Assembly: GCA_017467165.1 (NCBI GenBank)
Contig: JAFTST010000051.1
Coordinates: forward strand, 11,952-75,951
Direction of reading: 5' to 3'
Source: Clostridia bacterium
GTDB lineage: Bacteria; Bacillota; Clostridia; Oscillospirales; CAG-272
DNA: 64,000 bases
The notes under the pieces are model-generated. The model worked only from the letters and a program-made list of their open reading frames with translations, was not told the origin of the DNA and ran no database searches. The position numbers were made by a program, and so were the translations under genes. Positions 37,097 to 59,630 of this stretch are shown here, piece after piece; within the stretch, counting starts at the first letter, position 1, and each line of letters opens with the position of its first letter.

Positions 37097-37218
37097 CCGA
37101 TGAAGGGCTGCCGCGCGGCAGAAAAGAGCTTTCGCGCGGGGTGGGGTCACTACAGCCCGAAGAAACAGTCAAAAAAATAAAAAACATATAGGCTCGTATG
37201 AGCCAAAAGGAGACGAAA

Positions 37219-39324: not shown

Positions 39325-39471
39325 GACATATTCGGGAATGGAATAACCCATTTTCAAAAGCCGACGCTTCGATGCGTTGAAAAAACAATTCAAGCCACGG
39401 GCTGTGACGGATTTTTCCCAAGGATTTCGCATCATAGCCCGATGCATAACGTCTGACTGAAAGGTATAAAA

Positions 39472-42400
39472 ATGGCAGTTGTAAGGACACCTGACGAATT
39501 AAAAAATCCGGATTTTAACTATTATCTGGCGTTCCAGATAGACCCCAAGGAAAGAGATTCAAAGAAAATAGATGAAAAGCTGCGTACCAGACTCGGTAAC
39601 GCGGGCGGCTCGCTTATGACAAGAAGATACAACGAGCTCCGTACCGATATAATCGAGATAATGGTCAACGACTCCATATACGACGCCCAGAAGGACAGCT
39701 ATATTCAGGGCAAGGGCGGAAGAGCGAAGGAGCTAGCGGCGGCTAAGAAGTTCAAGCTCGACGAGGCAAGAGAACTCGCAGAGGACAGATGCAAGAAGAA
39801 CAAGGTTGTTCTTCGCTCGCAGCTTGACGATATATATAACGCTATCAACAGACAGTCGGTATACTTCACCAAGGATGAGTATAACGCCGAAATAAAATAT
39901 CTCGAGCAGCAGACCACTATCATAGAAGACGACTCCAAGGAGATACCCTTTGGCCAGTATGAAAAGCTGGACGATTATCTGACTACGCTCGGATATGAAA
40001 ACGTGTTCGCCTTTCTTTCTTCATCAGGCTCGACAATCACCGAAAAGAGCCCGCCCGACGAGATAAAGAAGGCGAAGGACGCCGTCTACTCCTTGGGAAA
40101 CAAGACTGCCGATATGAAGAAAAAGCAGGCGACGAGCAACCTGTGCGGTATCGTCGAAACCATAATGGTCAAGGACCCCAAGGGCGCTCGTACCTACTCC
40201 AACTATCTCGCTACGCGCGGCGTGGTATGGGATAAGATGGCTCACAAGAAGAGGGTCGGACTCACGGATATGACTCTCGACGAGTTCACAGGCTTCGTTC
40301 AGGAGATAATGGGTATCCTCGGGCTTTCGCTTGCCGAGGCTCAGAAAATGCTCGCTATCGGCTGCAGATACTTCCGCGTGGTGCTGGTAGACGTTACCCC
40401 GGGACAGAAGGAGGACTACCTCGTTGAGTGTCCCTACGACGACTGCGGCAGAGTGTTCAAGAAGGGGCTCAAGATTTGTCCCCACTGTAACCGCTCCATA
40501 GAAGCGCCCTGCTGGAACTGCGGAACGCTCATCAATCTTAACGCGGCGAAGAAGGGCTGCTCCGCTTGCGGAGCGACCACCGGCTCAAGAGCCATACTCG
40601 AGAGAAAGTGCTCGGAGCTTGACAGCCTTTTGGTCAAGACCGACGTTTCGGTTCCCGACCTCAAGTCCAAGCTCCAGGAAATCAAGGGAGTTGTGCCCGG
40701 CTACGAAAAGCACAGGAACTCCGAGGTAATGAGAAGAGTTACCAGGTACGAGGCGTCCGTGCAGAGCCGAGTCAAGCTTGAGGAAAACACAGGCAACGCA
40801 TACAGGGCGGAGGTCGATAAAGTCCGCACACTCGTCGGAGAAAAGAAATATCAGACCGCCTACCAGATGGCAAGGGGTCTTAAATCAAAGTACAGCTCGT
40901 ACAATACTCAGAACACCGATAAGCTCATAGCGGATATCAAGAAGGTGGTCGACGTTGCCGACAGGCATATGGAGCAGGCGAAGCAGGCAATGCTCCGCGG
41001 TGACGAAAGGAACGCTATTGAGTACGCTATCAAGGTCAATGAGCTCTGTTCTGACTACAGCGATACAAGACTTATTTTCCTTAAATTTCCCCCGAAGACT
41101 CCCGTCGGAATCAGAGCCGCTCTTGAGGGCGAGAAGGTTCGCATAGAGTGGGCAGAGGGAGCAAAGCAGGATTATATCACCTACACTGTTATCAAGAAAA
41201 ACGGCGTTCCCCCGTCATCTGCCGACGACGGCTCGGTGCTCGAGGGAGGAATATCCATTCGCTACGCCGAGGACAAAAATATCGTTTCCGCCGTACCCTA
41301 CTACTACGCGGTATACGCGGAGCGCTTCGGAATAAAGTCATCCCTGTCTATAACTCCCACACCCGTGTCGATATTCAAGGAGGTAGAGGACGCTGAGCAG
41401 CTGTTCCTCACTCCGGGTATAAAGGTTACCTGGCGTCCTCCCCAGAACGTCGCCTCGGTTGAGGTCTGGAAAAAGCAGGGCGTAGTCGCTCCCATAAAGG
41501 CAGGCGACGGTGTCAAGGTTCCCACAGACGGAAAGAGCTTCTACGATGAGAAGGCAGTCGGAGAAAACTCCTACCTGATTATATGCAACTACAGGGTTGG
41601 CACTCAGGCAGTTCAGTCCAAGGGTATAAGGCTCGTTCTGAAGCCCTTCGAGAACATAGCCCCCGTTACCTCCGCGAGTTTTTCGCACGTAGGGGATAAC
41701 AAATTCGCCTTCACCTCCGACCCCGTCAAAACGGGCAACGTATATCTCTACTTCTCGCCCACCAAGCCCTCGATACAGTATTCGGTTGCGCAGAGATTTA
41801 TCGATTTCGGCACCGTTTGTCCCGGATTTTCGAGGCTGACGGCTACCACGGGCGCAGACGGAGCGCTGAGGGTTATAGTTCCCAGAGAGAAAATCGGCTA
41901 CGTCTATCCCATAGTGATGACAGACCAGCTCTTCGTGGTTTCCGAGCCCTTCGCGGTAAATACCCTTTCGGGTATCAAGGACCTTCAGTATTCCTTCGCG
42001 GCCAACAGAGGCGTGGTTACCGTCGAGGGCAAGCTTCACCCATCGGCGAAGAATATCGTGGCGAAGATAAGCCATAAGGACTTCCCCGAAACGATGGAGA
42101 GCGAGGGAGAAAACTTCACCTTCACCGCCGACGACTTCAAGCAGGACGGAAGAATAGAGATAAACCTCCGCACCAACACGATAAACTACATAACCCTTTT
42201 CGTAGAGTTCTACGAAAACGGAAGCACGACCTACTCGCTCCCCGTCACTCTTGATACTCCCATAGATTACAGAGAAACGGTAAGGGTGAAGTACTGTATC
42301 AACTACAAGACCTCAGCTGTCAAAAAGTTCGACGTGGTTATCACCTACGAGGCGACCGAGGCGGTTACCATTCCCTCGGTGGTGCTGGTGAAGGGTGACC

Positions 42401-42597
42401 CCATACCCCTCAGAAAGAGCGCGGGAGAGCTCTGCGAAAGGCTCGACCCCGTAGACCTCGATTATAGCTTCATCTCGAAGAAGTATAAGAAAAAGGTTAC
42501 GGTGAAGGTTGACCCTGTCAGAACGGGAATGAAGTTTGAGATTTTCCCGAGCGCCGAGGGCGGACACGTCAAGCTTATCGCGGTCGATAAGCTCTGA
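39472..42597 (+). CDS. Large (1041 aa) protein with a central double zinc ribbon and C-terminal beta-rich (Fn3/Ig-like) modules
   Basis: The Cys clusters CPYDDCG...CPHCN...CWNCG...CSACG lie at roughly 40425-40575. Two segments have an Fn3-like pattern (VRIEWAEGAKQDYITYTVIKK..YYYAVYA; IKVTWRPPQNVASVEVWKK..SYLIICNY). I do not recognise an enzymatic motif. Confidence 0.8.
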   Translation: MAVVRTPDELKNPDFNYYLAFQIDPKERDSKKIDEKLRTRLGNAGGSLMTRRYNELRTDIIEIMVNDSIYDAQKDSYIQGKGGRAKELAAAKKFKLDEARELAEDRCKKNKVVLRSQLDDIYNAINRQSVYFTKDEYNAEIKYLEQQTTIIEDDSKEIPFGQYEKLDDYLTTLGYENVFAFLSSSGSTITEKSPPDEIKKAKDAVYSLGNKTADMKKKQATSNLCGIVETIMVKDPKGARTYSNYLATRGVVWDKMAHKKRVGLTDMTLDEFTGFVQEIMGILGLSLAEAQKMLAIGCRYFRVVLVDVTPGQKEDYLVECPYDDCGRVFKKGLKICPHCNRSIEAPCWNCGTLINLNAAKKGCSACGATTGSRAILERKCSELDSLLVKTDVSVPDLKSKLQEIKGVVPGYEKHRNSEVMRRVTRYEASVQSRVKLEENTGNAYRAEVDKVRTLVGEKKYQTAYQMARGLKSKYSSYNTQNTDKLIADIKKVVDVADRHMEQAKQAMLRGDERNAIEYAIKVNELCSDYSDTRLIFLKFPPKTPVGIRAALEGEKVRIEWAEGAKQDYITYTVIKKNGVPPSSADDGSVLEGGISIRYAEDKNIVSAVPYYYAVYAERFGIKSSLSITPTPVSIFKEVEDAEQLFLTPGIKVTWRPPQNVASVEVWKKQGVVAPIKAGDGVKVPTDGKSFYDEKAVGENSYLIICNYRVGTQAVQSKGIRLVLKPFENIAPVTSASFSHVGDNKFAFTSDPVKTGNVYLYFSPTKPSIQYSVAQRFIDFGTVCPGFSRLTATTGADGALRVIVPREKIGYVYPIVMTDQLFVVSEPFAVNTLSGIKDLQYSFAANRGVVTVEGKLHPSAKNIVAKISHKDFPETMESEGENFTFTADDFKQDGRIEINLRTNTINYITLFVEFYENGSTTYSLPVTLDTPIDYRETVRVKYCINYKTSAVKKFDVVITYEATEAVTIPSVVLVKGDPIPLRKSAGELCERLDPVDLDYSFISKKYKKKVTVKVDPVRTGMKFEIFPSAEGGHVKLIAVDKL

Positions 42598-42685
42598 TGA
42601 CTTTGAGAATAAGTAACACTTCAGCAGAGTAAAATGAAACAGGCAGGGCGCCACGCGGGCGCCCAAGCCAAAAGGAGATTTAAAA

Positions 42686-43837
42686 ATGAGCAAGTTCACC
42701 TGCCCGTACTGCTACCGGATCCACGAGGAAAAGACCTGCGGCGTCAAGTGCTCCTATCGCAACCACAGAAACGTGATGGAAACCTGTGTCGACGCATCAA
42801 AGCCCGGCTTCGTTGACAGGAAGGACCAGTACGGATATATACTTCCGCAGTTCAGAAAGACCTGCGCTAAATGTAAGTCGGCGGGAATGAAATACTACTG
42901 CAACGTAGCTAACAAGGAAATCCCCCGCGACTTCCTCAACGGCCCCAGCTTTTCGGTAGCTATACTCGGAGCGAAGGCGTCGGGAAAGTCGAATTACATA
43001 GGCGTTCTTATCAACTCTATCAAAAACGAGATGTCCAAGAGCTTTAACTGTATTCTAAATACAGCGGCGAGCGAGGAGTCCTGGGACCAGTACAACAACC
43101 ACTACTACGAGCCCCTTTTCAATCAGAAGGTAGTTATTCCCGCTACGGCTAACGATATTCTGCCTCCTATGATATTCCCCCTTCGCTTCCTCGAGTCGAA
43201 GATGTTCAACAAGAATCAGTACAAGGTCGACAAGGTTGCCGCCCTGACCTTCTACGACACCGCGGGAGAGAAGCTTAACTCCACGGACACGATGCTGGCA
43301 GAGAACCAGTACATCACCAACGCTAACGGCATTATTCTTCTGCTCGACCCGCTTCAGGTTCCCTCTGTCAGAGAGCAGCTCCGCGGAAAGATGCAGCTCC
43401 CCGCGCAGAACTCGGATACCGCCGAGGTTCTGGCGAAGATTATTGAGACCATAAGAATGGTGAATAAGGTCAGAGGAATAATAGATATTCCCATCGCGCT
43501 CGTATTCACTAAAATAGACGTGCTTGAAAAGTTTGACCTTCTCAGAGAGAACAGCGTTCTGTATCAGGAGTCGGAGCATCTGGCGAGAGGTATTTTCGTC
43601 AAGGATGACTTCAACGCGGTTAACCGCGAGATGCGCGCACTGATAGACAACTGGGTGGACAGCGACCTGTCACAGCAGCTCAAAAACTTCAAGACTGTCG
43701 CTATGTTCGGCGTTTCGGCGCTTGGCGGAATTCCCGTCGGCGCAAAGCTTGAGGCGGGTAAGATAACCCCCCGCCGTGTGCTTGATCCTCTCCTGTGGCT
43801 GTTCGCAGAGAAGAAGTACATCAAAACCGATAGATAA
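42686..43837 (+). CDS. Zinc-ribbon-fused P-loop GTPase (soluble; TRAFAC-type motifs)
   Basis: N-terminal CPYC...CGVKC...CAKC...YYC. GTPase motifs are G1 GAKASGKS, G3 YDTAGE, G4 FTKID and G5-like VSALG. An AAGGAGA RBS is present. Confidence 0.85.
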   Translation: MSKFTCPYCYRIHEEKTCGVKCSYRNHRNVMETCVDASKPGFVDRKDQYGYILPQFRKTCAKCKSAGMKYYCNVANKEIPRDFLNGPSFSVAILGAKASGKSNYIGVLINSIKNEMSKSFNCILNTAASEESWDQYNNHYYEPLFNQKVVIPATANDILPPMIFPLRFLESKMFNKNQYKVDKVAALTFYDTAGEKLNSTDTMLAENQYITNANGIILLLDPLQVPSVREQLRGKMQLPAQNSDTAEVLAKIIETIRMVNKVRGIIDIPIALVFTKIDVLEKFDLLRENSVLYQESEHLARGIFVKDDFNAVNREMRALIDNWVDSDLSQQLKNFKTVAMFGVSALGGIPVGAKLEAGKITPRRVLDPLLWLFAEKKYIKTDR

Positions 43838-43852
43838 TTATAGGAGGATAAT

Positions 43853-46800
43853 ATGAAGGCTTATCAGATGGTATACACCGCCTGCGGAAAGACCAAGAAC
43901 GGCGACTACGACGTTTGGGGACACTCCTCCGCTCTTGACTACAAGGAGTGCGGTGAAATTGACAAGATAATGAGCTATCAGCGCCCCAACGGCGCTCCCT
44001 TCCAGCCCACCGAGGAGGAGATAAAGCAGTATTTCCCGAAGAAGTACGGCTACTTCTACACCTCGTCGGGAAAGGCGTGTATAGCGCAGTCCTCTCACGT
44101 CGGACGCGTCTACTCGGACGTTGACGAGAGATGGGGTAACTATGTTACTCACGCGCTCTGCTTCGCATCGGATATTGATTTTTCTCCCTTTGATATATTC
44201 GGCGCTCCCGTTTTCAAGGATAAGCTCACCTACAAGGAGTGGCACGACGACCCCTCGCCCGAGAGTCTTCCCGAGATAGAGGTAACGATACCGAAGGGAA
44301 GGGCAGTATCGGGTGTGCCCGCGCTTCTTTCAGACAGCAGAAAGAAGAATATGCTCCCCGCATTCGTGCAGGCGGTTATCAATACCCTTGAGACTAACGA
44401 TAAGGCTGTCGTGGTTTCTCTTTCTGACGAGGAAATACCCACTCTGCTCGCGCTTGTCGGCGTGGCTCTGCCGAAATTTATGCACAAGAAGGTCACCTTC
44501 CAGACTCAGTACAGGGCTACGGGCAACTACGGTGACACCACCGTGCGCGCAAGAGTACAGTTCCCCCTCAACAGATCGACCTACGGCTTCGTTGACGATA
44601 TGAGAGCGGGAAAGACCGTCTTTAACTTTGACACGGGAGATTTCACCGACGTTAAGGTTGGCGGATACGTCAAGGGTGTATTTGCCGCGCTGAACGGTGG
44701 AATTGACGCGGCGGAGAGATACGCCGCATCTATCGGCAAGGCTATGACCGAGCTTCACTGCGATATTGAGGCGGCGGCGCTCGTTGGCGCGCTTATGGGC
44801 GGAAAGTACAATGATTTCGACAGCCCCGCTCACTACGAGAGCGTGCTTAATATGCTGATCGACGCTAAATATATTAATAAGGAGGAGTATGCCTCCAGAG
44901 TGTACAGCGAGATAGTTGCTAAGGCAATCTGGCCCTTCAACACCGAGCTGTCGGGGCTTATCCGCTTCGCCTACGAGAACGGCGGACAGAGCATCAGAAA
45001 CGAGCTCGTCTTCAGGGTTATGAAGTCGCTGTCTGCGTTTGGTATCACGCTCGCCTCGCCCACAGAGCAGGCGTTTGACTCCTTCAAGAGAGGACTTCCC
45101 ATTGACTACAAGGGAGTTGTTTCAGCTGCTCTCACCGACCAGCGCTGGACTGCTCTTACCGAGAGCGCTGACGAGGCTCTCACCTACGTTATCCTGAGAA
45201 TCTATATAGACGCTCTCAAAACTCCGTCCGCCTCTACCGCAGAGAATTATATTCTCAGAATAGCGAAGAAGGCGTATGAGAAGGCCGGACTTGACGCGCT
45301 TGTGACAAATCTCTCGCTGCTCGGCGATAACAAGCAGCTTGCCGACAGGCTTATATACTCCACCGTTGGCGCGCTCTTCGGAAAGGGCTCACTCAGCGAA
45401 AAGGAGCTCTCGCTCGCATTTGACGGCGCGCTTCTTCTTTCTACAAGAGGGGCAAGACGCGACGCCACCCTCGCTATTATCAAGGGCAGCCTCAATTCGC
45501 CCGCTCTCATTTCGGTCTATACCGACAAAAAGGCGGCAAATCCTCAGGCGTTCGCAGAGCTTGAGAGGGAGCTGTCGGGCGAGGCAGAGTTCGTAGAGTT
45601 CGTCAAGAGGTGCAGACTTCTTGAGTTCAAGAATAAACAGACGGTTACTCCCGCAGAGCTTGACCGCTACTTCAAGGAATACTATATCACAGGCGAGGAC
45701 GACGGCACTTACCTGAAGAAGCTCGACGCGCTTATCGGCGCGAAGCGCCAGGTCGGCGACGCTGTCGAGGCGCTTTTGGACGTCTATACCAAAAACTGTC
45801 CCGCTGACGATAGCTCCGCGCTCTGTCTTGACGTGGTTTCCTATATCGAGAAAAAGATATTCTCCTACCCTCTGTCCGAGCTTATCAAGCTTCGCGCATC
45901 GGTAATTAATCAGGTAGCGCAGATTGACGCAAGGCTCAAGGGAGCTCGCCGCCAGACCAGCGGTCAGTATGAGCTTCTCTATACCGCGATGCTCATCAGC
46001 AGAAAGACACCGAGAGAGGTTCTCTACGCGGCTGTTGAGGGCAAGAAGATATACGAAAGACTTTCGCCCGAAAAGCTGGAGCTTTTCGCTCGCAGCTTCA
46101 CTACCGAGGCTGTTGCTCTGTACGTTGATATGAAAAGGAAGGATAAGAAGCTCGGCAAGCAGCAGCTTATGACGGCTATCATTCATCCTCTTCTCAGCAA
46201 GGTTAAGGATAGTAACCTGTACTTCACCAAGGCAATCAAGGCGCAGAGATTCGAGGACGGAGCAGAGCTCGTCGCTGACCTTATGTGCTACGCCTTCAAC
46301 ACCGAGGGCGGATTTGCTGACAGGGCTCGCGATTTCGTTAAGTACTACGTTTCTACCCTGAAGCGTCCCGAATATAAGAAGCTCTTCAAGCTTATCAAGG
46401 CAATTCTCACGCCCAAGGAGTACGCAGGCCCGAAGAAGTTCATCAACGACCACCTCAACAACAACCGCAGCTTCCTTGAAAAGCTCTTCGGAGCGAAGAA
46501 GGCGGGCGATGACGATGAGGATGAGGACGACGAGGACGAGGACGAAAAGGAAAGCGACTCGGAAAAGAATAAGCCTGTCGAAAATAAGAAGGACGAAAGG
46601 CGTCCTGACGGAAAGCAGAGCGCAGAAAGGCGCCCCGACGGGAAGACCCCTGAAAGACCCGACCCGAGGAAAAACGAGCATAGAAGACCCGATACGAGAA
46701 ATTGGGAGGACAGACCCACCGACAGCTCGAAGCACAACGAGAAAAACAGAAAGTGCCAAAGATGCGGCAATTACTATTCCTCCGAAAAGTTCAGCGCCTG

Positions 46801-46984
46801 CCCGAGATGCGGCGAGGTTGCAAGACGCCCCGAGGGTGAGAAGGAAAATGGACACAGATGCCCCGAGTGTGGCGCTCCCTATACGGAGAAGGACAGATTC
46901 TGCTCGAGCTGTGGAAAGCCCGTAGGAAAAAAGAGCGTTGATTGGAAAAAGAACAATGGCATAGACGAGGACGATAATGGCTGA
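43853..46984 (+). CDS. Large (1043 aa) mostly helical protein with an acidic/basic low-complexity tail and two C-terminal zinc ribbons
   Basis: AGGAGG RBS. The tail reads DDDEDEDDEDEDEKESD...RRPDGKQSAERRPDGKTPERPDPRKNEHRRPDTR, followed by CQRCG..CPRCG and CPECG..CSSCG. Confidence 0.8.
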   Translation: MKAYQMVYTACGKTKNGDYDVWGHSSALDYKECGEIDKIMSYQRPNGAPFQPTEEEIKQYFPKKYGYFYTSSGKACIAQSSHVGRVYSDVDERWGNYVTHALCFASDIDFSPFDIFGAPVFKDKLTYKEWHDDPSPESLPEIEVTIPKGRAVSGVPALLSDSRKKNMLPAFVQAVINTLETNDKAVVVSLSDEEIPTLLALVGVALPKFMHKKVTFQTQYRATGNYGDTTVRARVQFPLNRSTYGFVDDMRAGKTVFNFDTGDFTDVKVGGYVKGVFAALNGGIDAAERYAASIGKAMTELHCDIEAAALVGALMGGKYNDFDSPAHYESVLNMLIDAKYINKEEYASRVYSEIVAKAIWPFNTELSGLIRFAYENGGQSIRNELVFRVMKSLSAFGITLASPTEQAFDSFKRGLPIDYKGVVSAALTDQRWTALTESADEALTYVILRIYIDALKTPSASTAENYILRIAKKAYEKAGLDALVTNLSLLGDNKQLADRLIYSTVGALFGKGSLSEKELSLAFDGALLLSTRGARRDATLAIIKGSLNSPALISVYTDKKAANPQAFAELERELSGEAEFVEFVKRCRLLEFKNKQTVTPAELDRYFKEYYITGEDDGTYLKKLDALIGAKRQVGDAVEALLDVYTKNCPADDSSALCLDVVSYIEKKIFSYPLSELIKLRASVINQVAQIDARLKGARRQTSGQYELLYTAMLISRKTPREVLYAAVEGKKIYERLSPEKLELFARSFTTEAVALYVDMKRKDKKLGKQQLMTAIIHPLLSKVKDSNLYFTKAIKAQRFEDGAELVADLMCYAFNTEGGFADRARDFVKYYVSTLKRPEYKKLFKLIKAILTPKEYAGPKKFINDHLNNNRSFLEKLFGAKKAGDDDEDEDDEDEDEKESDSEKNKPVENKKDERRPDGKQSAERRPDGKTPERPDPRKNEHRRPDTRNWEDRPTDSSKHNEKNRKCQRCGNYYSSEKFSACPRCGEVARRPEGEKENGHRCPECGAPYTEKDRFCSSCGKPVGKKSVDWKKNNGIDEDDNG

Positions 46985-47279
46985 GTTAATCACGGGAATA
47001 CTTAGTGTTGCCATAGTGATAGCGGCGGCAATTCTCGCTATATTCGCTCTTGTGGCTTCCTGCTTCGCAGGAGCTGTTGCGGGAAGCGTGGGTGGCGGTG
47101 GAGCAGGACTTTTCCACACGCTAAAGACCTGCTTTCACACCGTCGACGTCGGCATTAAGAGCAAGGCTATGAGAATTGCAGTATTCGTTCTGCTCGGTCT
47201 TGTCGCTCTTCTTGCCGTAGGGCTCGCGGTGTACGCGATATGCCTGATTATCCCTCTGATAGCTAAGGGGGGCGTATGA
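46977..47279 (+). CDS. Small (100 aa) membrane protein with three predicted hydrophobic helices
   Basis: It overlaps the stop of the upstream gene by 8 nt and has an ATGA overlap with the downstream GTPase gene. Hydrophobic segments are ILSVAIVIAAAILAIFALVASCFAGAVAG and IAVFVLLGLVALLAVGLAVYAICLIIPLI. Confidence 0.65.
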   Translation: MAELITGILSVAIVIAAAILAIFALVASCFAGAVAGSVGGGGAGLFHTLKTCFHTVDVGIKSKAMRIAVFVLLGLVALLAVGLAVYAICLIIPLIAKGGV

Positions 47280-48724
47280 CGGATCCTGCTAAAATAAGCT
47301 ATATGTTCACCCTTGCGCCGATGGAATATTCCGACTCGGTGAAGGAAATATTTGAGGACTATATCAACGTTATCAAGAAGAATTTCGGCAAGCTGGAAAA
47401 CAAGTTCATTGACTTAACAAGGCTTGATTTCTCCGGAAACTTCTTTAACAGTCTGAAGTTCGGAAGCCTTTTCGCCTTGCAGCTTGGCTTTTTCTTCGGC
47501 GAGCTTTTGCTGCACGCGGTTCTTAGCGCGCTGTTTGGCGGTTTATTTATACTTCTGTACGGCGCGGCGGTCTATGGAATGAAGCTGTACGGATACGTGA
47601 CGATGGGTATTCTTCTTTCTATAGAGTACCTTTTCTCATTCTTCAAAAGAATTGCCTTTAGCTGTCCGAACTGTCAGGCGAAGCACAAAATGCCAACTTA
47701 TCTTTGCAAATGCGGCAGAAAACACAAAAAGCTGATGCCCTCGAGCGCCGGACTTCTCAAAAGAGAGTGTGTCTGCGGAGAAAAGCTCGCCTGCTCGCTG
47801 TTTTCGGGAAGGCACAGGCTCTCGGGAAGGTGGCTCTGTCCCGACTGCGACTATGAGATAGGTGGACCCTTGCATACGGATATACCGATTCCCGTTGTCG
47901 CAGGACCCAACGCGGGAAAAACCTGCTTTATCATCTCGGCTATAATGGAGCTCGAGAAGAATTCTGAGAGAAAGCACGACCTTCTTTTCGAGTATCACGA
48001 AAACCCGCAGCTTGGCGACGACTACTACGATAACAAGAGGCAGATAGAGAGGGGCAACGCTCCTCTGAAAACACGCGACAGCAGGCTTCGCTACTATCAG
48101 TTCTATCTTACCCCCAGGGGCAAAAAGATAAGAAATATGGTATCGCTGTGCGACGTCGCGGGAGAGGTATTCGCGCACGGGGACGACGTTATTCAGCCCG
48201 GCTTCAAAAACGCGGCGGCGTATCTTATTATCGTCGACCCGCTGTCAATCCCCGCCCTGAGAGCCGACCTCGACCCTGCCGTTGTGGCAAGGACACGCTT
48301 CAGCACGCGTCCTATGGACGAGGTAGTCAATATACTTATCAAGACCCTTGAGCTTTTCGGTGTCAAGGAGTCACAGCACGCGCATATCGATATAGCGGTA
48401 GTGTTCACCAAGTGCGACACTCCCGGTATCGACGACATCATAGGCAACAGGGCGGTTATGAGGACTATGCAGACCTCGGGTATTGAGTCAAGGCTCGAGG
48501 CGCAGAATGCCGTCTGTCAATCCGCGCTTATGAAATACGGCGAGGCTAACTTTCTCAACGCCATTCGCTCGCAGTTCAGAAGCCTGCAGTTTTTCACCAC
48601 CTCTGCTCTTGGCGAGAGTGGACAGGCATTTAATCCCATTGGCGTTGACGAGCCGATTCTCTGGCTTGTCGACAAGGTGAGCCCGGATATTAATCTGAAG
48701 GCGAAATGGGGAAAGAAAATTTAA
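47276..48724 (+). CDS. Membrane-anchored zinc-ribbon GTPase (paralog 2)
   Basis: The N-terminal hydrophobic region (about residues 60-125) is followed by CPNC..CKCG..CVCG..CPDC. GTPase motifs are G1 GPNAGKT, G3 CDVAGE, G4 FTKCD and G5-like TSALG. The C-terminal tail is INLKAKWGKKI. Confidence 0.85.
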   Translation: MTDPAKISYMFTLAPMEYSDSVKEIFEDYINVIKKNFGKLENKFIDLTRLDFSGNFFNSLKFGSLFALQLGFFFGELLLHAVLSALFGGLFILLYGAAVYGMKLYGYVTMGILLSIEYLFSFFKRIAFSCPNCQAKHKMPTYLCKCGRKHKKLMPSSAGLLKRECVCGEKLACSLFSGRHRLSGRWLCPDCDYEIGGPLHTDIPIPVVAGPNAGKTCFIISAIMELEKNSERKHDLLFEYHENPQLGDDYYDNKRQIERGNAPLKTRDSRLRYYQFYLTPRGKKIRNMVSLCDVAGEVFAHGDDVIQPGFKNAAAYLIIVDPLSIPALRADLDPAVVARTRFSTRPMDEVVNILIKTLELFGVKESQHAHIDIAVVFTKCDTPGIDDIIGNRAVMRTMQTSGIESRLEAQNAVCQSALMKYGEANFLNAIRSQFRSLQFFTTSALGESGQAFNPIGVDEPILWLVDKVSPDINLKAKWGKKI

Positions 48725-48887
48725 GCTCCGCGGTACACAGTCAATCCGTGACCCGTATCGCCCAAGAAAAAAAGACACGGGTGGTGTCATAGACCGATAC
48801 ACCGCCCGTGAATAAAATGAATAAGCGTATTTTTCTGTCCCCGTCGGCGACGCGGATAGGGCAATAAGCTTATCCTATGGAGGAAAA

Positions 48888-49553
48888 ATGGTTTTTTATA
48901 TCAGCTTTGGTATCATTCTTCTGGCTTTTGGAATATTCAACTACGTAGCGTCGATTTTATCCTCGAAGGGAAGACCGATATCGAGCTACGCTATGGCGGC
49001 GGTGCTCAGGTGCTTCGCGGTTGCCATTATGCTCGCCGTGACGGTCTGTCTGTGGTTCGCGACGCCTCGCCTTATCGATTTAGACTGGGATTATGAGGGC
49101 AGGGGGCTGCTTATAGTGGTTTCCTTATTCAACTCCATCATTCTGTGCAGTCTGCCCCTGCCGCTCGTTATACGCAGATTCGGCTCGTCCTTTAACTATA
49201 ACAGAACGAAATTCATGACCGCGTATATAGCGAATATTCTGGCGCTGCTTGCTATCGGATTTGTTGAAACGACGCTTATCTCGCTTGTGACCTACTCCAA
49301 CGCGCTATTTTATCACAGGGATTTCTGGGTCTATGCCTTCTACTTCATTTTCGCAGTCTGCGCGGGCGCGGCGGGATTTTTCTCCGCTTTCTCGGGCGAG
49401 GACGGAATTATCGACAGCTTCACCAGAGATAACTCGTCGATGTGGAATTATATAATGGGCTTCGGAGTATTTCTCCTTGCGGGATTCGCCGGAAACTACG
49501 TTATTATGTTCGTGGTATGGGTTATCCGCGGAATTATCGGTCTTTTCACTTAA
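48888..49553 (+). CDS. Polytopic membrane protein related at its N-terminus to the type A array proteins
   Basis: 221 aa with a GGAGGA RBS. The N-terminal IILLAFGIFNYVASI shares the G-x-x-NYV motif found at the N-termini of the type A proteins. Confidence 0.7.
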   Translation: MVFYISFGIILLAFGIFNYVASILSSKGRPISSYAMAAVLRCFAVAIMLAVTVCLWFATPRLIDLDWDYEGRGLLIVVSLFNSIILCSLPLPLVIRRFGSSFNYNRTKFMTAYIANILALLAIGFVETTLISLVTYSNALFYHRDFWVYAFYFIFAVCAGAAGFFSAFSGEDGIIDSFTRDNSSMWNYIMGFGVFLLAGFAGNYVIMFVVWVIRGIIGLFT

Positions 49554-49639
49554 AGCTCTCAATTATGTCATCAATCAAATAGGTTAAACTCTTCATTAAT
49601 TAAGTAATTAATAAATAAAAAATATAAAGGAGCAACACA

Positions 49640-51058
49640 ATGCAAAAACAACCTGCTCAAAAAAGTTACTTTTTTGACAAGGGCTACAAGGACGTCGGGA
49701 ACATTCTGAAAAAGACCTGGACCACCGCCTTCCGCCCTGTCACCAACGAGTTTTCGAGGGTGGTACAGCTTTTTGCCGACAACGTAGTTGCGGCAATCTT
49801 CACCGTCGTCGTTGACCTCGTCGTATTTTCCATCGTCACCGCGGCGATACTGCTCGGAGTTCTTATCTTCTCGGCAGTCTTCATCGCGGGTATTGCGGCA
49901 GCGGGCGTAGTGGTCTACGTTTTCTACTCGCTTCTGTTTCTGGCTGACTTCGTGTTCTGTCTTATTCAGCATATTTCCTCGCACTGCAGCGTGTGTCAGA
50001 ACAAGTTCCGTCTGCCATATTACAGATGCCCCAACCCCGCCTGCTCAAACGTACATACCGCCCTGCGCCCCAGCGTGTACGGTATTCTGAAAAGAAAGTG
50101 TAACTGCGGCAGAAAGCTGCCCACAACCTTCTTCAACGGCAGACAGAAGCTCGAGGCTATCTGTCCTCACTGTAACAAGAGAGTTGACGGCGGCGGAGAG
50201 CACACCGAGATAATGATTCCCATCGTCGGCGGCTCAAACTCGGGAAAGACCTGCTTCGTCAATATGGCTATCAAGCAGATTGAGGCCTGCGCCTCCCAGA
50301 ACGACCTCGTGTTCGAATACAATCCCACCCTTGACGATAATATGGGTGATATAAGAGCTACTATGGGCAGGGGTATGCTCCCCCCCAAGACCCGTGAGGA
50401 GAGAATGACCTACTACCGCTTCTACCTCACTCCCAAGGGAAAGAAGGTCAAGACCCTTATTTCTCTTTGTGACGTTGCGGGAGAGGCGTTTGACAACAAG
50501 GATAAGATTGGCGAGCAGATAGGCTACAAGAACGCTAACGCCTTCGTTATGGTGGTTGACCCGCTTTCCATTCCTGCCTTCTATATGGATCAGCAGAAGA
50601 AGATGAACGTCAATAACTACGCCAGAAGCACCAAGGCGCTTGACACCGTTCTCAACAACCTTATAGTAACGCTCGAGAGCCTTAAGTGCATCGACGCCAA
50701 GACTATGATAAAGACCGACGTCGTGGTGGTGTTCACCAAGTGCGATATTCCCGACCTGGTTAAGCGTATGGGTCCGCAGGCTGTACAGCAGTATATGTTT
50801 GACAACAATCTGCCCTCGAAGTTCGTCGCGCAGAACAAGCTGTGTGAGCAATTCCTGCTCGAGTACGGAGAGGCGAACTTCTTAAACTCTCTGCGCTCCA
50901 AGTTCCGCAGTATTCAGTTCTTCCCGACCTCTGCTCTCGGTCACGTACAGAACGGTATGAAATACGCTCCTCAGGGTGTTGAGGATCCTATTCTCTGGAT
51001 TATCGACAAGATTTCCGCGGGAATCAACCTCAAGAACAAGTGGGGCAAGAAAATTTAA
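49640..51058 (+). CDS. Membrane-anchored zinc-ribbon GTPase (paralog 3)
   Basis: It has the same architecture as 47276..48724. Cys motifs are CSVC..CPNPAC..CNCG..CPHC. GTPase motifs are G1 GGSNSGKT, G3 CDVAGE, G4 FTKCD and G5-like TSALG. The tail is INLKNKWGKKI. Confidence 0.85.
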   Translation: MQKQPAQKSYFFDKGYKDVGNILKKTWTTAFRPVTNEFSRVVQLFADNVVAAIFTVVVDLVVFSIVTAAILLGVLIFSAVFIAGIAAAGVVVYVFYSLLFLADFVFCLIQHISSHCSVCQNKFRLPYYRCPNPACSNVHTALRPSVYGILKRKCNCGRKLPTTFFNGRQKLEAICPHCNKRVDGGGEHTEIMIPIVGGSNSGKTCFVNMAIKQIEACASQNDLVFEYNPTLDDNMGDIRATMGRGMLPPKTREERMTYYRFYLTPKGKKVKTLISLCDVAGEAFDNKDKIGEQIGYKNANAFVMVVDPLSIPAFYMDQQKKMNVNNYARSTKALDTVLNNLIVTLESLKCIDAKTMIKTDVVVVFTKCDIPDLVKRMGPQAVQQYMFDNNLPSKFVAQNKLCEQFLLEYGEANFLNSLRSKFRSIQFFPTSALGHVQNGMKYAPQGVEDPILWIIDKISAGINLKNKWGKKI

Positions 51059-51074
51059 CACGGGGGTTATATAA

Positions 51075-52040
51075 ATGCTTTTGATTGGCATACTGCTCGG
51101 CGTATTTATAATTACGGCGGGCGTTATCAACTACATATTCGTTGTCAGAAATCCGAACAGCTCGGGAGGAATATTCAACTTCCTTGGCTTCGCGGTTTCG
51201 GTTATGGTGACTACGCTGGCGCTTATTGTGATTAACACTCTGGGCGTATTTATACCTCAGTTTGTTTTCACCAATATTCACTGGGGCTGGCTGCTTGGCA
51301 TCAGCATCGTTTTGCTGATAACTATCTTCATTTTTGTGATAGCAGCCTTTAGTAGCTATTCTCGCTCTGATGCTGAGGAAACTATAGTCGGCATTACGGG
51401 ATTTATGCTTATTCCTCTGCTCGTTGTGCTGATTATGGCTCCTGTGAGAGCCGATATACATACCTACGAGCTCTCGGAAGCGAGGGACTTCAACCTTCTT
51501 AACAATCTTCCCACCGACTCGAAATATATCTATCACTTTGAGGTGACCGACGATATAGACTTCGAGGGTGAGAAAACGAGAATTGTCTACGGCAGGGAAA
51601 AGTTCACCTATTATATTGACGGAAACGGTCACACCCTCTCGGGCTTCGTCTGCGAGGATGATATCAAGGAGGACTGCTCGCTCTTCACGGCGGGTTATAT
51701 CGTCCTGGCTAATAGCGACGTCTATTACTCTAAAATTTCAAACATTACCCTCGACGGCTTCGTCCTGACCGTTGCTCCCAACGGATACGACAAGGAAAAC
51801 CGCGTAGGACTCAATCTCAATTACTCAATCTTCGATAAGGATATCGAGCTTGAGGGCGTTACTCTTAAGGCAGAGGTTATCATAGCGGACGAGGTTATCT
51901 ACAACCGCTCGCTGACCCCCTCTACCATAGCCTCGGTTTTGCCCGAGAGCGGTGAGGACGATAGGGGAAATAAATTCAACGTTACCGTCACAGGAGAGCT
52001 CTACAAGCCCGAGCCCGAGCCCGAGACGGACGCAGAATAA
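51075..52040 (+). CDS. Array protein type A, copy 1 (four N-terminal TM helices plus a roughly 190-aa C-terminal domain)
   Basis: Contains the NYI/NYV N-terminal motif, the HWGW motif (NIHWGWLLG), DIDFEGEKTRIVYGREKFTYYIDGNGHTLSGF, and LTVAPNGYDKE. Confidence 0.8.
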   Translation: MLLIGILLGVFIITAGVINYIFVVRNPNSSGGIFNFLGFAVSVMVTTLALIVINTLGVFIPQFVFTNIHWGWLLGISIVLLITIFIFVIAAFSSYSRSDAEETIVGITGFMLIPLLVVLIMAPVRADIHTYELSEARDFNLLNNLPTDSKYIYHFEVTDDIDFEGEKTRIVYGREKFTYYIDGNGHTLSGFVCEDDIKEDCSLFTAGYIVLANSDVYYSKISNITLDGFVLTVAPNGYDKENRVGLNLNYSIFDKDIELEGVTLKAEVIIADEVIYNRSLTPSTIASVLPESGEDDRGNKFNVTVTGELYKPEPEPETDAE

Positions 52041-52049
52041 GGAGGAAAA

Positions 52050-53057
52050 ATGATATTACCAATCGCTCTGGTCGTCATATTTGCCCTGACGGTCGGTGTC
52101 TACAACTACGTTACTATCAGCCGCGGCTCGTCGGGAAGGGGCTTTGCACTGGAAAGTCTTTATCTTGCCACCTTCGTTTCCTGCGGAATTATGCTGGTAG
52201 TCGGACTTTTGGCTATGAGAGCCCCGAGCTTTATTTTCACTTATATCCACTGGGGCTGGTTTCTCGCGTGCAGTATCGTCGTATTTTTGCTCTGCATATT
52301 TATGATGATACTTTTGATAAATGACAGCGCGGAGGCTTATTGGTCTGCTCTTGTTACCTTTATAGGCATTTTGGTTATAGTTTTCGGCATTGTAGCTCCC
52401 GTGAGAGCTGACAAGCACACCTATGAAATCAGCAAGCCCCAGCACTTCAACCTTCTCACCAACCTCCCCGGAGATAAGAAGAACGTCTACTACTTCGAGC
52501 TTGGCGATGATATCGACTTCACGGGCAAGAAGGTCAAGGACAGCTATGGCAGCAAGAGAGTGTGCTACCGCATCGACGGAAACGGACACTCTATTAAGGG
52601 TATATCCTATACCGCGGAGCTGAAGGAGGACGGATGTCTTTTCATTGGCGGAGAGGCGCAGGATGGCACAGGCAGCTATTATAGCTCTCGCATATCCAAC
52701 GTTGTCTTTGAGGATATGGTTCTCATTCTGACTCCCAACGCCTACGACGAGGACAGACACGAGGGTCTGTCGGTTAACTTCAATATGTTTTCCGAAATCG
52801 GCACAAGCCGTCACGTAAGCCTGGATAACGTTACCGTCAAGGCTAACGTCAGGGTTACCGAGGCTGTGGAAAATTATCGCTCTATAAATCCCTCCGAGGT
52901 TGGCGCTATCAATCTTGGAGAAGTAGACAGCGCGTACGTTGTCAACGAGAGTGACTTCGCTATAACCATCAATGATACCGAGGTTGCCTCTAAGGGTAAC
53001 TACACGCTTAATTATGAAATTCCCGAGGAAAATAACGGCGAGGAGGTAGAAGGATAA
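52050..53057 (+). CDS. Array protein type A, copy 2
   Basis: AAGGAGG RBS. Contains YIHWGWFLA, DIDFTGKKVKDSYGSKRVCYRIDGNGHSIKGI and LILTPNAYDED. Its stop overlaps the start of the type B gene at 53057. Confidence 0.8.
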   Translation: MILPIALVVIFALTVGVYNYVTISRGSSGRGFALESLYLATFVSCGIMLVVGLLAMRAPSFIFTYIHWGWFLACSIVVFLLCIFMMILLINDSAEAYWSALVTFIGILVIVFGIVAPVRADKHTYEISKPQHFNLLTNLPGDKKNVYYFELGDDIDFTGKKVKDSYGSKRVCYRIDGNGHSIKGISYTAELKEDGCLFIGGEAQDGTGSYYSSRISNVVFEDMVLILTPNAYDEDRHEGLSVNFNMFSEIGTSRHVSLDNVTVKANVRVTEAVENYRSINPSEVGAINLGEVDSAYVVNESDFAITINDTEVASKGNYTLNYEIPEENNGEEVEG

Positions 53058-54247
53058 TGGTAGCTATAACCTATCTTGTTATCGCGGCGATAGTCGGAAT
53101 TATCGCGGCTATTGGCTTTATCGGTGTATTTAACTTCTTCGGCACCTTCTTTATCACCTTTATCGCCGCCTTCTGTATCGGTATGTTCATAGAAACCGTA
53201 GACCAGGGCTGTAACACCGGTCTTGACTCGGCTAACGAGGTGTTCGAGGTGCTGGGTATAGATTACGGCGGACTGTGGGTGCTTTTAGGATTACCCGGAC
53301 TCGTCTATATAGTTATGTTCCTTTTCTGCGGCGTATTTATGGCTCCCTTCTGGTTCTTGGTCGAGGATTGCAGGACATATAAGACGGTCACCAGAACGGT
53401 GCAGTGGGTTGCCGTTGGTATTCTCTCAATTTCGACGGTGGTCTGCGCCCTTATGTTCCTCGCTCCCACCTTCCTTTACTCGCTTATGCACTGGGGCTGG
53501 CTGTTCGGTATTCTTATTGCAGCGTCTGTGCTCGTTATAGTTGCTCTGCCGATGGTTGATAACAACTACTACTCCTTCGGCGGCCCGCTATACAACATTC
53601 TTCTTATCGTGGCTATCGCTATTATTCCCGTGACTGTCACGGGTCTTATCGTGTCCTCGAATCACACTCACTTTATCGGAAGCGCGTTTGAGATGAACGC
53701 CTTCGGAAACGCTCCTCAGGGCAAGAATACCGTTTTCGTGCTTGAAAACGACATTGATTTTGAGGGCGAGGAGGTTCGCTGGTTCGGAGAGTACAAGAAC
53801 TTCAAGGGTATGTTCAACGGTCAGGGACACACTCTCTCCAACTTCAAGGTTACAGACAGGGTGAGAAATCTCAAGACCGAGGGCGATTACAAGGGCACCG
53901 GCCTTGTTATCAGCAACAACGGTATATTCAGAGATCTGAAGATTGACGGCGCTCTTATCTCCGTGGAATTGCCGAAGGAATACTACGGCACTATCAATGT
54001 TGGTATGTTTGCCGCGGAAAACCTGAACGGAAAATACCTCAACTGCGTGACCACAGGCTCGGGCATAAGAATAGAAAAAAATGAAACCTACGACAGCCAA
54101 AAGGTATATAGGAGCTTCAGAGTAGGAAATTGGAACAACGGCGTTGAGGGTATAAGCGCTAGTAACAACGGCGGAGAGCATCGCTTCCCTGAGGAAATGC
54201 GAAATGATACGACTAAGCGCTGGGAATATTACCCCGAAACCGAATAA
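53057..54247 (+). CDS. Array protein type B, copy 1 (longer polytopic TM region plus C-terminal domain)
   Basis: Contains LMHWGWLFG, MNAFGNAPQGKNTVFVLENDIDFEGEEVRWFGEYKNFKGMFNGQGHTLSNF and GLVISNNGIFRDLKI. Confidence 0.8.
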   Translation: MVAITYLVIAAIVGIIAAIGFIGVFNFFGTFFITFIAAFCIGMFIETVDQGCNTGLDSANEVFEVLGIDYGGLWVLLGLPGLVYIVMFLFCGVFMAPFWFLVEDCRTYKTVTRTVQWVAVGILSISTVVCALMFLAPTFLYSLMHWGWLFGILIAASVLVIVALPMVDNNYYSFGGPLYNILLIVAIAIIPVTVTGLIVSSNHTHFIGSAFEMNAFGNAPQGKNTVFVLENDIDFEGEEVRWFGEYKNFKGMFNGQGHTLSNFKVTDRVRNLKTEGDYKGTGLVISNNGIFRDLKIDGALISVELPKEYYGTINVGMFAAENLNGKYLNCVTTGSGIRIEKNETYDSQKVYRSFRVGNWNNGVEGISASNNGGEHRFPEEMRNDTTKRWEYYPETE

Positions 54248-54259
54248 CGGAGAATTTTT

Positions 54260-55231
54260 ATGTACTTATTTTTGATTATTGCGGGCGTTTTCGTGCTTAT
54301 CGCGGGTGGAACTAACTACGTTCTCGTTCTGAAAAATCGCTCTGCCAGATCAATGGTCAGCTCGAAGGGCTTGCTCGTCGCATTCTTTGTGGCGAGCCTG
54401 TTGACGTTTCTTTATAACGTCCTTGTCAACGTTGCTCCTAAGTATGCCTTTTTGTACGTGCATTACGGCTGGTTTTACGGAATAAGCATCGCTGTGTTTA
54501 TTCTCTCCTTGATACTCGGCGTTTTGCAGCTGTTTATCTACAACAAGCATAGCTTTGAGAGAAAGACTAACCTCGGCGTATCGCAGATACTCGTCGGTAT
54601 ATGCGTGCTTATACTAATGATCGGAGGTGGCAAGGCGGCGGCAAGCGGCGCCTACGAGCTATCGGAGCCCCGCGACTTCAAGCTTTTAGAAAATATTCCC
54701 TCGGAGGACGACAGCTATTCGTATTTTTATCTTTCCTCGGACATTGACTTCGAGGGGCAGACGGTGACAGAGCCCTTCGGCAGAGAGGGAGCGAGATACA
54801 CCATCAACGGCAACGGACACACCATCTCCAATCTCAACGCAGAGCTTGTCCTGACGGAAAAGGTGAGCGCACTGTTTTTAAACTCGTATAGCGTTGCGTC
54901 CGATGGATATACGGGTGGAATATCTATATCAAGGCAAGTAAACTCTATATATGATCTGAAATTTGACGGCTGCTCCTTCACCCTGACGCCTAACGGATAT
55001 GACGAGGACAGCTTTTCGTCCTATAAGTGCGACTTTGCTCTGATGAAAAAGAGCGATGCGGAGGCTATCGCGGGCAGCGAAATAACTATGACTAATACTA
55101 CCGTGACGGTTAAGCCTGCCATAGAAAATATCCGCTCCATTGATAAAACCTCGATTGGCGAGATATTCGCGGAGCTTGTGGGAAGCGACCTTTTGGGACT
55201 TAATATAGTCAGAGAGGAGGAGAGCGAATGA
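54260..55231 (+). CDS. Array protein type A, copy 3
   Basis: Contains YVHYGWFYG, DIDFEGQTVTEPFGREGARYTINGNGHTISNL and FTLTPNGYDED. It has an ATGA overlap with the next type B gene. Confidence 0.8.
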   Translation: MYLFLIIAGVFVLIAGGTNYVLVLKNRSARSMVSSKGLLVAFFVASLLTFLYNVLVNVAPKYAFLYVHYGWFYGISIAVFILSLILGVLQLFIYNKHSFERKTNLGVSQILVGICVLILMIGGGKAAASGAYELSEPRDFKLLENIPSEDDSYSYFYLSSDIDFEGQTVTEPFGREGARYTINGNGHTISNLNAELVLTEKVSALFLNSYSVASDGYTGGISISRQVNSIYDLKFDGCSFTLTPNGYDEDSFSSYKCDFALMKKSDAEAIAGSEITMTNTTVTVKPAIENIRSIDKTSIGEIFAELVGSDLLGLNIVREEESE

Positions 55232-56415: not shown

Positions 56416-56424
56416 GCAGCAATT

Positions 56425-59628: not shown

Positions 59629-59630
59629 GT

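Follow-up and report, generated by a model that had tools for sequence, protein, structure and literature searches.

Three paralogous GTPase genes and their motifs

We analysed a 64,000-nucleotide (nt) stretch of the genome of a gut Clostridia bacterium (contig JAFTST010000051.1, positions 11,952 to 75,951; hereafter the window), which carries three paralogous GTPase genes, termed G1, G2 and G3 (Table 1). The three open reading frames (ORFs) lie on the forward strand, where an initial annotation made from the sequence had placed zinc-ribbon-fused small GTPases, and encode proteins of 383, 482 and 472 amino acids (aa), respectively. The P-loop, DTAGE or DVAGE, TKxD and SAL motifs claimed for them were all located in each ORF by a regular-expression scan. 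G1 has the P-loop GAKASGKS (aa 95–102), T154, DTAGE (aa 191–195) and TKID (aa 275–278), G2 has AGPNAGKT, DVAGE, TKCD and SAL, and G3 has GGSNSGKT (aa 197–204) followed by the same DVAGE, TKCD and SAL. The P-loop of G2 starts with Ala and thus fits [AG]xxxxGKT.

Conservation of these motifs was profiled in an alignment of 81 membrane-type homologues (41–58% identity) and one of 119 soluble-type sequences. GxxxxGKT, D278, G281, E282, K367 and D369 are invariant in the membrane-type homologues, their G4 motif reads T, S or N (n = 52, 24 and 3, respectively) followed by K-x-D, and S431-A-L433-G is near-invariant. The soluble family retains the P-loop, an invariant FYDTAGE and FTKxD. A switch-I Thr that the initial annotation had not listed is also conserved, as K250-T251 in the membrane forms and as T154 in the soluble family. 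All G-domain motifs (motifs G1 to G5) are intact in the three window copies, and their conservation, which goes well beyond chance, indicates that they are under selection. GTP binding and hydrolysis are predicted from these motifs, i.e., [TS]KxD with its invariant Lys and Asp, and SAL; switch behaviour is putative.

The four Cys pairs reported directly upstream of the P-loop were found in G2 and G3 (CxxC, CxC or Cx4C, CxC, CxxC; CPNC, CKC, CVC and CPDC in G2). Soluble G1 departs from this pattern, with CPYC, CGVKC and CAKC plus single Cys residues. Across the 119 soluble homologues the zinc ligands C6, C9, H13, C22, C34, C60, C63 and C72 are kept, corresponding to two zinc sites. Each GTPase copy has eight conserved ligands, in agreement with the one or two N-terminal zinc ribbons of DO-GTPases, and the family profile gave weak matches to zinc-ribbon proteins across this segment.

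Table 1 Features of the locus in the window (TM, transmembrane helix)
Feature	Position	Strand	Evidence
387-aa protein, unknown family, possibly first system gene	32300–33463	+	No Pfam match
Two Hsp70 paralogues (535 aa, 33518–35125; 532 aa, 35498–37096)	33518–37096	+	Pfam HSP70
Hsp70 (nucleotide- and substrate-binding regions) fused to C-terminal vWA, 708 aa	37198–39324	+	Pfam
1041-aa protein, double zinc ribbon (aa 320–366), putative FNIII-like repeats in C-terminal half	39472–42597	+	DZR below cutoff
G1, soluble DO-GTPase, 383 aa, two zinc sites then G domain	42686–43837	+	Pfam DO-GTPase2
GAP1, N2 type, 1043 aa, polar low-complexity tail, C-terminal zinc ribbons	43853–46984	+	Pfam GAP1-N2
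100-aa membrane protein, 2–3 TM, overlapping both neighbouring genes	46977–47279	+	Hydropathy
G2, membrane-anchored DO-GTPase, 482 aa, canonical core copy	47276–48724	+	Pfam DO-GTPase2
221-aa polytopic membrane protein, ~6 TM, NY motif in TM1 (FGIFNYVASIL)	48888–49553	+	Hydropathy
G3, membrane-anchored DO-GTPase, 472 aa, accessory clade	49640–51058	+	Pfam DO-GTPase2
Array of nine paralogous membrane-protein genes	51075–59628	+	Paralogue alignments
Array, A type (4 TM and beta-rich C-terminal domain)	51075–52040, 52050–53057, 54260–55231, 57470–58396	+	Alignments
Array, B type (~6 TM and same C-terminal domain)	53057–54247, 55228–56415, 58393–59628	+	Alignments
Array, TM-only members	56425–56796, 56932–57327	+	Alignments
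Transglutaminase-like protein, 357 aa, last system gene in the window	59589–60662	+	Pfam Transglut_core, 46.5 bits
Hairpin with 13-bp stem, likely terminator, between convergent transglutaminase-like and IleRS genes	60685–60713		Hairpin scan

Family assignment and fold of the GTPases

All three proteins matched the Pfam family DO-GTPase2 (PF19993) above its gathering cutoff of 27 bits (G1, 31.2; G2, 35.4; G3, 47.3), and nearly all of the homologues listed carry a precomputed PF19993 annotation. The other families that the initial annotation had put forward for comparison were not supported: in the same Pfam scan Roc and MMR_HSR1 stayed below threshold (17.7 against 27 bits and about 15 against 21.9 bits, respectively), and there was no match to Dynamin_N or Septin. 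In NCBIfam, small_GTP scored 17.8 bits against a cutoff of 42.5, and no model there named a GTPase, the GAP1 protein or an array protein. Searches of the PDB with single sequences or with the 81-sequence profile found no sequence relative of the GTPases.

G3, the only copy modelled, gave a confident AlphaFold2 (AF2) prediction from the 81-sequence alignment (pLDDT 87.6, pTM 0.81). A Foldseek search of this model against the PDB returned 494 matches at E ≤ 0.001, led by EF1alpha, eEFSec, EF-Tu, Rab, Ras and Rac (E from 4e-8 to 5e-6; 11–17% identity), with a TM-score normalised to the target of 0.6–0.7 for small GTPases. Given that the G3 model matches TRAFAC GTPases, the motifs sit on a GTPase fold, and the concern that they might not do so was not borne out. 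With the DO-GTPase2 scores of all three copies, this upholds the proposal of TRAFAC-type GTPases as opposed to generic ATPases. They form no new class and their classification is not in itself new, the family being already described and modelled in Pfam (PF19993, PF20013).

The fold and the order of motifs G1 to G5 are those of Ras-superfamily and translation-factor GTPases, such as EF1alpha (3vmf, 3wxm), eEFSec (5izl), EF-Tu (1eft), Rab27B (2zet), Rab33 (2g77) and KRAS. Unlike these, DO-GTPases have a Glu after DxxG and a G4 motif of the form T/S-K-x-D, and the domain is larger, with inserts, and preceded by zinc ribbons and, in the membrane forms, a membrane hairpin. Ras has a Gln after DxxG, and TKxD is the G4 form found in dynamins.

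The membrane anchor of the long forms

The membrane anchoring claimed for two of the three GTPases was confirmed to the extent that both G2 and G3 have an N-terminal hydrophobic anchor. The hydrophobic region of about 110 aa described for it corresponds in length to an extension of about 115–129 aa, of which only about 40 residues are uninterruptedly hydrophobic. We resolved its elements by column-wise hydropathy and charge over the 81 membrane-type homologues. A near-invariant N-terminal peptide, MxKQPAxxNYFFxxGY, is followed by an amphipathic segment that extends to about aa 47, a segment of moderate hydrophobicity and an uncharged hydrophobic run of 38–41 residues (aa 65–102 of G3; aa 65–104 of G2 by hydropathy). 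The run is flanked N-terminally by a K/R column and C-terminally by D103, present in 80 of the 81 sequences, and then K/R at 107, 110 and 111. The pattern is consistent with a helical hairpin whose two ends are cytoplasmic, an arrangement that would suit the need of the G domain to reach GTP.

The C-terminal tail shared by the long forms was likewise recovered (INLKAKWGKKI and INLKNKWGKKI), and it is a conserved basic feature of the 81 homologues, with the consensus I-[DN]-L-K-x-K-W-G-K-K-I; it may contact the membrane surface. Within the N-terminal peptide (window positions 47276–47330 in G2 and 49640–49690 in G3), A6, Y10 and F12 are invariant in all 81 membrane GTPases. Judging from the shared residues, its N-Y might compete for the same site as the NY helices of the partner proteins described below.

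A conserved core in related loci

A scan of genomes, with one genome per species, returned 38 related loci (numbered with the prefix L). Most are in metagenome-assembled genomes (MAGs) of gut Clostridia, the best match being an uncultured Christensenella MAG at 56% identity, and further loci were found in Treponema, Anaeroplasma, Erysipelotrichaceae, a Bacteroides-labelled bin and further groups. When the window proteins were searched against every ORF of the loci, a recurrent order emerged, i.e., nucleotide-binding-type Hsp70, Hsp70-vWA, a protein of about 1035 aa, soluble GTPase, GAP1-N2 and membrane GTPase. Two members are optional, a small protein with 2–3 TM often found before the membrane GTPase and a 216–239-aa protein with 6–7 TM sometimes found after it. 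The homologue of about 1035 aa lies upstream of the G1 homologue, directly or two genes away, and in most loci with sequence on the upstream side the soluble GTPase is immediately followed by GAP1. The conserved partners are Hsp70-vWA, the protein of about 1035 aa, the soluble GTPase and GAP1-N2.

In the window, the GAP1 gene starts 15 nt after the end of G1, and its product matched GAP1-N2 with 56.4 bits (cutoff 24), GAP1-M weakly (17 bits), and Zn_Ribbon_1 and DZR at aa 968–1024. The two upstream Hsp70 paralogues scored 276 and 253 bits over model positions 2–372 and 2–378 only, and thus cover the nucleotide-binding part of the model, as expected for copies without a peptide-binding domain. 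Hsp70 fragments or full copies also lie upstream of Hsp70-vWA in eight related loci (L010, L012, L014, L024, L026, L029, L030 and L037). Hsp70-vWA, whose position is kept in related loci, combines HSP70 (321 bits, aa 13–530) with VWA (62 bits, aa 535–679). In the 1041-aa protein DZR reached 20.4 bits, below its cutoff, and a 20-sequence profile of aa 545–760 had the "Fn3-like protein" 3mpc as its top PDB match, a weak one (E = 0.0025). The slot before the membrane GTPase is filled in most related loci by a 60–103-aa protein with 2–3 TM, several of which carry the NY motif. Roughly 25 of the 38 loci have a transglutaminase-like homologue after the membrane GTPase(s).

Most loci have one membrane GTPase; two were found in L001/2/6 (a single arrangement in near-identical copies), L008, L014 and L017, and three in L004 and L013. 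Given this range in the relatives, the window trio is a soluble copy plus a duplicated membrane copy. L004 (860–2254) and L013 (8392–13150) have four DO-GTPases each, and in L004 one membrane copy lies upstream of the soluble one.

A rough neighbour-joining tree placed the membrane copies in separate G2 and G3 clades. The G2 clade comprises copies preceded by GAP1 and the small TM protein, and the G3 clade consists of the 472-aa window copy, L002_10001, L003, L004_10001, L005, L007 and L008_10001. In L003, L005 and L007 (10001–11400) the G3-clade gene is solitary, with no G1 or GAP1 homologue within 10 kb and proteins with NY helices adjoining. The MAGs of L005 and L007 hold a full core on another contig (L009 and L022, respectively), an assignment that depends on the binning. 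G3 thus belongs to a paralogous accessory clade that is accompanied by interchangeable membrane proteins and can also stand alone, away from the core of the system, elsewhere in a genome.

Adjacent membrane proteins and the NY motif

According to the initial annotation, each membrane GTPase is followed by a protein of the A type. This is correct for the array gene after G3 (51075–52040); the 221-aa protein after G2 belongs to the type only loosely. It aligns with the 4-TM module of the array (hhalign probability 82%, E = 1e-5), carries the NY motif and lacks a C-terminal domain. In L023, L024, L026, L028 and L034–L037, the membrane GTPase is followed by an analogue of 216–239 aa that has 6–7 TM and an NY helix at its C-terminus.

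The AF2 model of a 321-aa array member (pLDDT 75) has four TM helices and a beta domain. Its best Foldseek match had E = 1.5, with beta-helix pectinases and IgA1 protease at noise level, and we set aside a beta-helix assignment of the C-terminal domain. A word-indexed search found five relatives of the array proteins, and a full profile search returned 57 full-length representatives at E ≤ 1e-30. The latter also returned thousands of partial matches between the C-terminal domain (motifs DIDFxGE and IDGNGHTLS) and repeated modules of giant GLUG proteins of one to seven thousand aa, one of which also carries M26_N. The array proteins thus resemble GLUG surface proteins and the N-terminal region of M26 IgA1 proteases (PF07581, PF05342) at the level of a module, but each has only one such module, joined to a membrane module of 4 or 6 TM; they were not matched by Pfam Glug itself, and no structural match was significant.

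Array-family proteins also adjoin a membrane GTPase in L005 and L008, which come from two other genomes. Other G3-clade neighbours are 623–687-aa proteins with 4–5 TM and beta-rich and Gly-rich regions, and a 640-aa PPC-repeat protein with a C-terminal anchor. These otherwise unrelated GTPase-adjacent membrane proteins, as well as the small upstream and the 216–239-aa downstream ones, have in common a TM helix end, G-x-[IF]-N-Y-[IVL]-x-x-[VIL]-K/R, here called the NY motif. In the window it was detected in 6 of 222 ORFs, all of them array genes or the gene for the 221-aa protein, and lies in TM1 of the A-type and TM-only members. In the related loci, 24 of 68 TM-encoding ORFs adjacent to a membrane GTPase (within 400 nt on the same strand) have the motif, against 1 of 646 other TM-encoding ORFs, and that one is inside a system. 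As the motif was derived from examples already seen and the loci include near-duplicates, the p-value of this enrichment (Fisher p about 1e-25) is only indicative, but the specificity of the motif is striking. The pairing of the GTPases with array proteins proposed at the outset is backed by the adjacency in L005 and L008 and by the shared NY motif, with the qualification that the array is lineage-specific, strain-variable and mainly tied to the G3 clade.

Strain-level turnover of the array

In a close strain (L042), the locus recurs with the same genes on either side. Its GAP1, small TM protein, G2, 221-aa protein, G3 and transglutaminase-like protein are 97.7–99.1% identical to those of the window, the last at 99.1%. 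The array genes are 92–94% (four genes), 76%, 49% and 46% identical, the lowest values (46–49%) being those of the last array genes. The strain has three additional genes, for a 236-aa paralogue of the 221-aa protein (5992–6702), a 318-aa A-type protein (9015–9971) and a 381-aa B-type protein (17318–18463). By the Nei-Gojobori method, dN/dS was 0.04–0.21 with dS of 0.03–0.14 in the core, and 0.21–0.34 with dS of 0.12–2.4 in the seven full-length array genes; one TM-only gene of 115 codons gave 0.77, with very few changes. The low ratios with raised dS give no sign of gene-wide positive selection in the array, which had been expected, and the excess divergence is better explained by older or recombined alleles. 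Compared with the core, the identity and dS values indicate that the cassette has been replaced or recombined faster, and the array is a lineage-specific, strain-variable add-on.

Relation to the published GTPase-centric systems

GAP1-N2 GTPase-centric systems were predicted computationally by Kaur, Burroughs, Iyer and Aravind (eLife 2020; PMC7159879). The DO-GTPases described there are TRAFAC GTPases with a Walker B Glu and two N-terminal zinc ribbons, and a second copy has an N-terminal TM region, for which four N-terminal and one C-terminal TM were given as a generalisation, not a strict criterion (PMC7159879). The systems include a rapidly evolving FNIII-repeat protein, and Hsp70 genes, some without the peptide-binding domain, occur in about 14% of the neighbourhoods, in a theme that also includes GrpE, and DnaJ or TPR fused to the FNIII protein (PMC7159879). 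Variable components come from arrays of linked, often TM-rich genes, and small shared domains (EADs and GAAD) couple variable effectors to the constant core. The systems were grouped with diversifying conflict systems, with a predicted anti-invader role (PMC7159879).

The locus in the window shares with the published Hsp70 theme the DxxGE motif (DTAGE in G1, DVAGE in G2 and G3), the zinc ribbons, soluble and TM copies, GAP1-N2 downstream of a DO-GTPase, a large, putatively FNIII-like protein, several Hsp70s including copies without a peptide-binding domain, vWA, TM-rich arrays and its occurrence in Firmicutes. It differs in having three GTPases, with up to four in L004 and L013, where the paper reports one or two, in the fusion of Hsp70 to vWA, and in that GrpE and DnaJ were undetected here. 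The anchor is a single putative hairpin of about 40 residues after amphipathic helices, and the C-terminus has a basic tail in place of a TM helix. A recurrent transglutaminase-like gene is unmentioned in the published account, and a G3 clade with solitary copies, the NY motif and a GLUG-like array are undescribed there. The host is a gut Clostridia bacterium and not obviously multicellular. As with EADs and GAAD, a short element is common to unrelated variable proteins beside a constant component; the NY element is, however, a TM helix end (N-Y followed by basic residues) and not a soluble domain, and its binding partner is putative. New relative to the published systems are the combination of three GTPases that includes an accessory clade, the modules that stand alone, the helix end with the NY motif, the recurrence of a transglutaminase-like gene and the strain-variable GLUG-like array.

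Proposed mechanism and alternative explanations

Together, the three genes encode DO-GTPases of a GAP1-N2-type, Hsp70-associated GTPase-centric system on the chromosome of a gut Clostridia bacterium. We infer, and consider it probable, that they act as a GTP switch coupled to the membrane, in a system for sensing or defence. The G domains would be nucleotide-dependent dimerising switches, the soluble pairing with a membrane copy, as the name "double GTPase" implies. Membrane copies would be held by the hydrophobic hairpin of about 40 residues, with the near-invariant Asp at its cytoplasmic end. Variable membrane proteins could dock onto the hairpin near D103 via their NY helix ends; in the window these are the proteins of the GLUG-like array, and in related loci PPC-repeat or beta-helix/Gly-rich proteins. 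Their extracytoplasmic domains might then sense an envelope event and relay it to the GTPase pair and GAP1, which would read the GTPase state and engage the FNIII-like protein and the Hsp70 and Hsp70-vWA chaperones. In line with the prediction of Kaur et al., the system would most likely serve to sense invaders or damage to the envelope, or to respond to them.

Several observations weigh against this reading. Within the literature searched, DO-GTPase and GAP1-N2 appeared as terms only in the 2020 prediction, and no biochemical or genetic evidence was found, so the family goes back to that one prediction. The long forms have neither a C-terminal TM helix nor four clear N-terminal TM helices. 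The FNIII support for the 1041-aa protein is weak, with no Pfam fn3 match even at E ≤ 10, and GrpE, DnaJ and TPR were undetected in the ORFs of 32300–42597, where divergent versions are possible. A PADLOC-DB 2.0 scan of eight system proteins gave only chance-level matches of about 13 bits, the soluble GTPase had no match in the phage collection, and its matches among plasmids were two distant ones on Rhodococcus megaplasmids. The locus lies between housekeeping genes about 25–55 kb from dnaA, with no obvious defence island around it. The definition of the NY motif was post hoc, near-identical loci inflate its count, and docking to the hairpin is conjectural. The array divergence points to allele replacement, with positive selection not demonstrated.

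Part of this evidence favours the main rival, in which the same GTPase family serves a housekeeping envelope machine and not a conflict system, the GTPases, Hsp70/vWA and transglutaminase-like enzyme inserting, folding, anchoring or cross-linking variable surface proteins. The position near oriC and the absence of the family from the phage collection fit such a role, as do the lack of a classical toxic effector domain in Pfam scans of the window, the transglutaminase-like gene of most related loci, often followed by a protein of about 300 aa with 7–8 TM, the surface-protein look of the variable partners, with domains also found in giant GLUG adhesin-like proteins, and the mostly purifying selection on the array. 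The patchy distribution over unrelated phyla (Treponema, Anaeroplasma, the Bacteroides-labelled bin) and the variation in cassette content between close strains are more typical of conflict or accessory systems, however, and the published analysis places these systems with diversifying conflict systems (PMC7159879). We therefore regard the envelope machine as unlikely, although it is the strongest competitor of the sensing or defence system. Far less probable is that at least one copy is a degenerate pseudo-GTPase or ATPase serving only as a scaffold. G2 has an Ala at the first P-loop position and a Glu replacing the near-invariant D103, the G4 motif is T/S-K-x-D instead of the canonical NKxD, and SAL is unconserved in the soluble family; yet [AG]xxxxGK[ST] is a standard Walker A motif, the K, T, D, G and E of motifs G1 to G3 and the K and D of G4 are fully or almost fully conserved across the 81 and 119 homologues, and every motif is retained by all three copies. 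The least credible alternative is that ordinary Ras-like, dynamin-like or septin-type GTPases lie beside membrane-protein genes by chance. The sub-threshold Roc, MMR_HSR1 and small_GTP matches and the structural likeness to Rab and Ras would suit it, but every Ras-like-type match is below its cutoff while DO-GTPase2 exceeds its own, Dynamin_N and Septin did not match, no sequence-level PDB relative was found, and the gene order with GAP1 and the remaining system is kept over dozens of loci. The Pfam scores and the gene order effectively refute it.

We tentatively suggest a transmembrane "plug" code, in which the NY helix end would be a dedicated element for docking to the DO-GTPase hairpin at the conserved interfacial Asp, and G3 with its cassette a semi-autonomous satellite; we hold it to be possible, though short of even odds. 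Its rapidly exchanged users would be the GLUG-like array, beta-helix/Gly-rich, PPC-repeat and small 2–7-TM proteins. If so, a G3 module could work at a distance from the GAP1/Hsp70 core, and the code would amount to modular signalling from receptors to GTPases across the membrane of the bacterium, with a loose resemblance to receptor-coupled G proteins.

DO-GTPase/GAP1 systems are widespread, with 974 homologues found for the soluble copy, and the 2020 prediction cast them as a major class of conflict systems under NTP regulation. This locus gives a compact, testable picture of their possible membrane wiring, with a soluble/membrane pair and GAP1, an accessory clade and likely partners marked by the NY motif. 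The cassette turnover in a gut Clostridia lineage points to interaction with phages, other cells or the host, and suggests natural variants for comparison.

Operon structure, genomic context and minor observations

The system genes are on one strand and overlap or are 1–163 nt apart, and the hairpin after the transglutaminase-like gene is the sole strong terminator-like site in 42000–61000. The spacing and lone terminator fit one or a few long operons. The 387-aa protein, which has a homologue ahead of the Hsp70 gene of the Treponema locus L029, tentatively belongs to the system. Pfam searches with sub-fragments of the 1041-aa protein and GAP1 found no FNIII, DnaJ or GAP1-C. The window also holds dnaA, dnaN, gyrB, gyrA, the RNase J gene and parAB, with IleRS downstream of the system, and these replication-origin genes indicate that the system is chromosomal and near the replication origin. 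They lie at 5700–14472 (dnaA, dnaN, gyrB and gyrA) and 19760–22122 (parB and parA, on the minus strand). The G+C content at 18–24 kb is markedly lower than elsewhere (0.34–0.42 versus about 0.50).

In residues 850–965 of GAP1 (46400–46750), just before the zinc ribbons, an acidic run, DDDEDEDDEDEDE, gives way to basic ERRPDGK-like units in repeated form, resembling the "highly polar C-terminal extension" of Firmicute GAP1 proteins (PMC7159879). Two very long antisense ORFs with unsupported, low-complexity translations, 37150–39447 (765 aa) and 45389–47119 (576 aa), overlap Hsp70-vWA and GAP1, respectively, and are most likely composition artefacts. The 7–8-TM protein of about 300 aa that follows the transglutaminase-like gene in many loci is absent from the window.

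In L018 (3289–5834), genes for a TrwB/VirD4/HerA-FtsK-like ATPase (Pfam TrwB_AAD_bind, 149 bits) and for a partner of about 400 aa are located between the FNIII-like gene and the soluble GTPase. Similar pairs of genes for proteins of about 445 and 400 aa were found in L011, L027 and L028, and represent an accessory theme outside the three of the 2020 paper. We considered these pairs as the tubulins of the published "tubulin theme" and rejected this, the L018 copy being a TrwB-like ATPase and its partner having no Pfam match.

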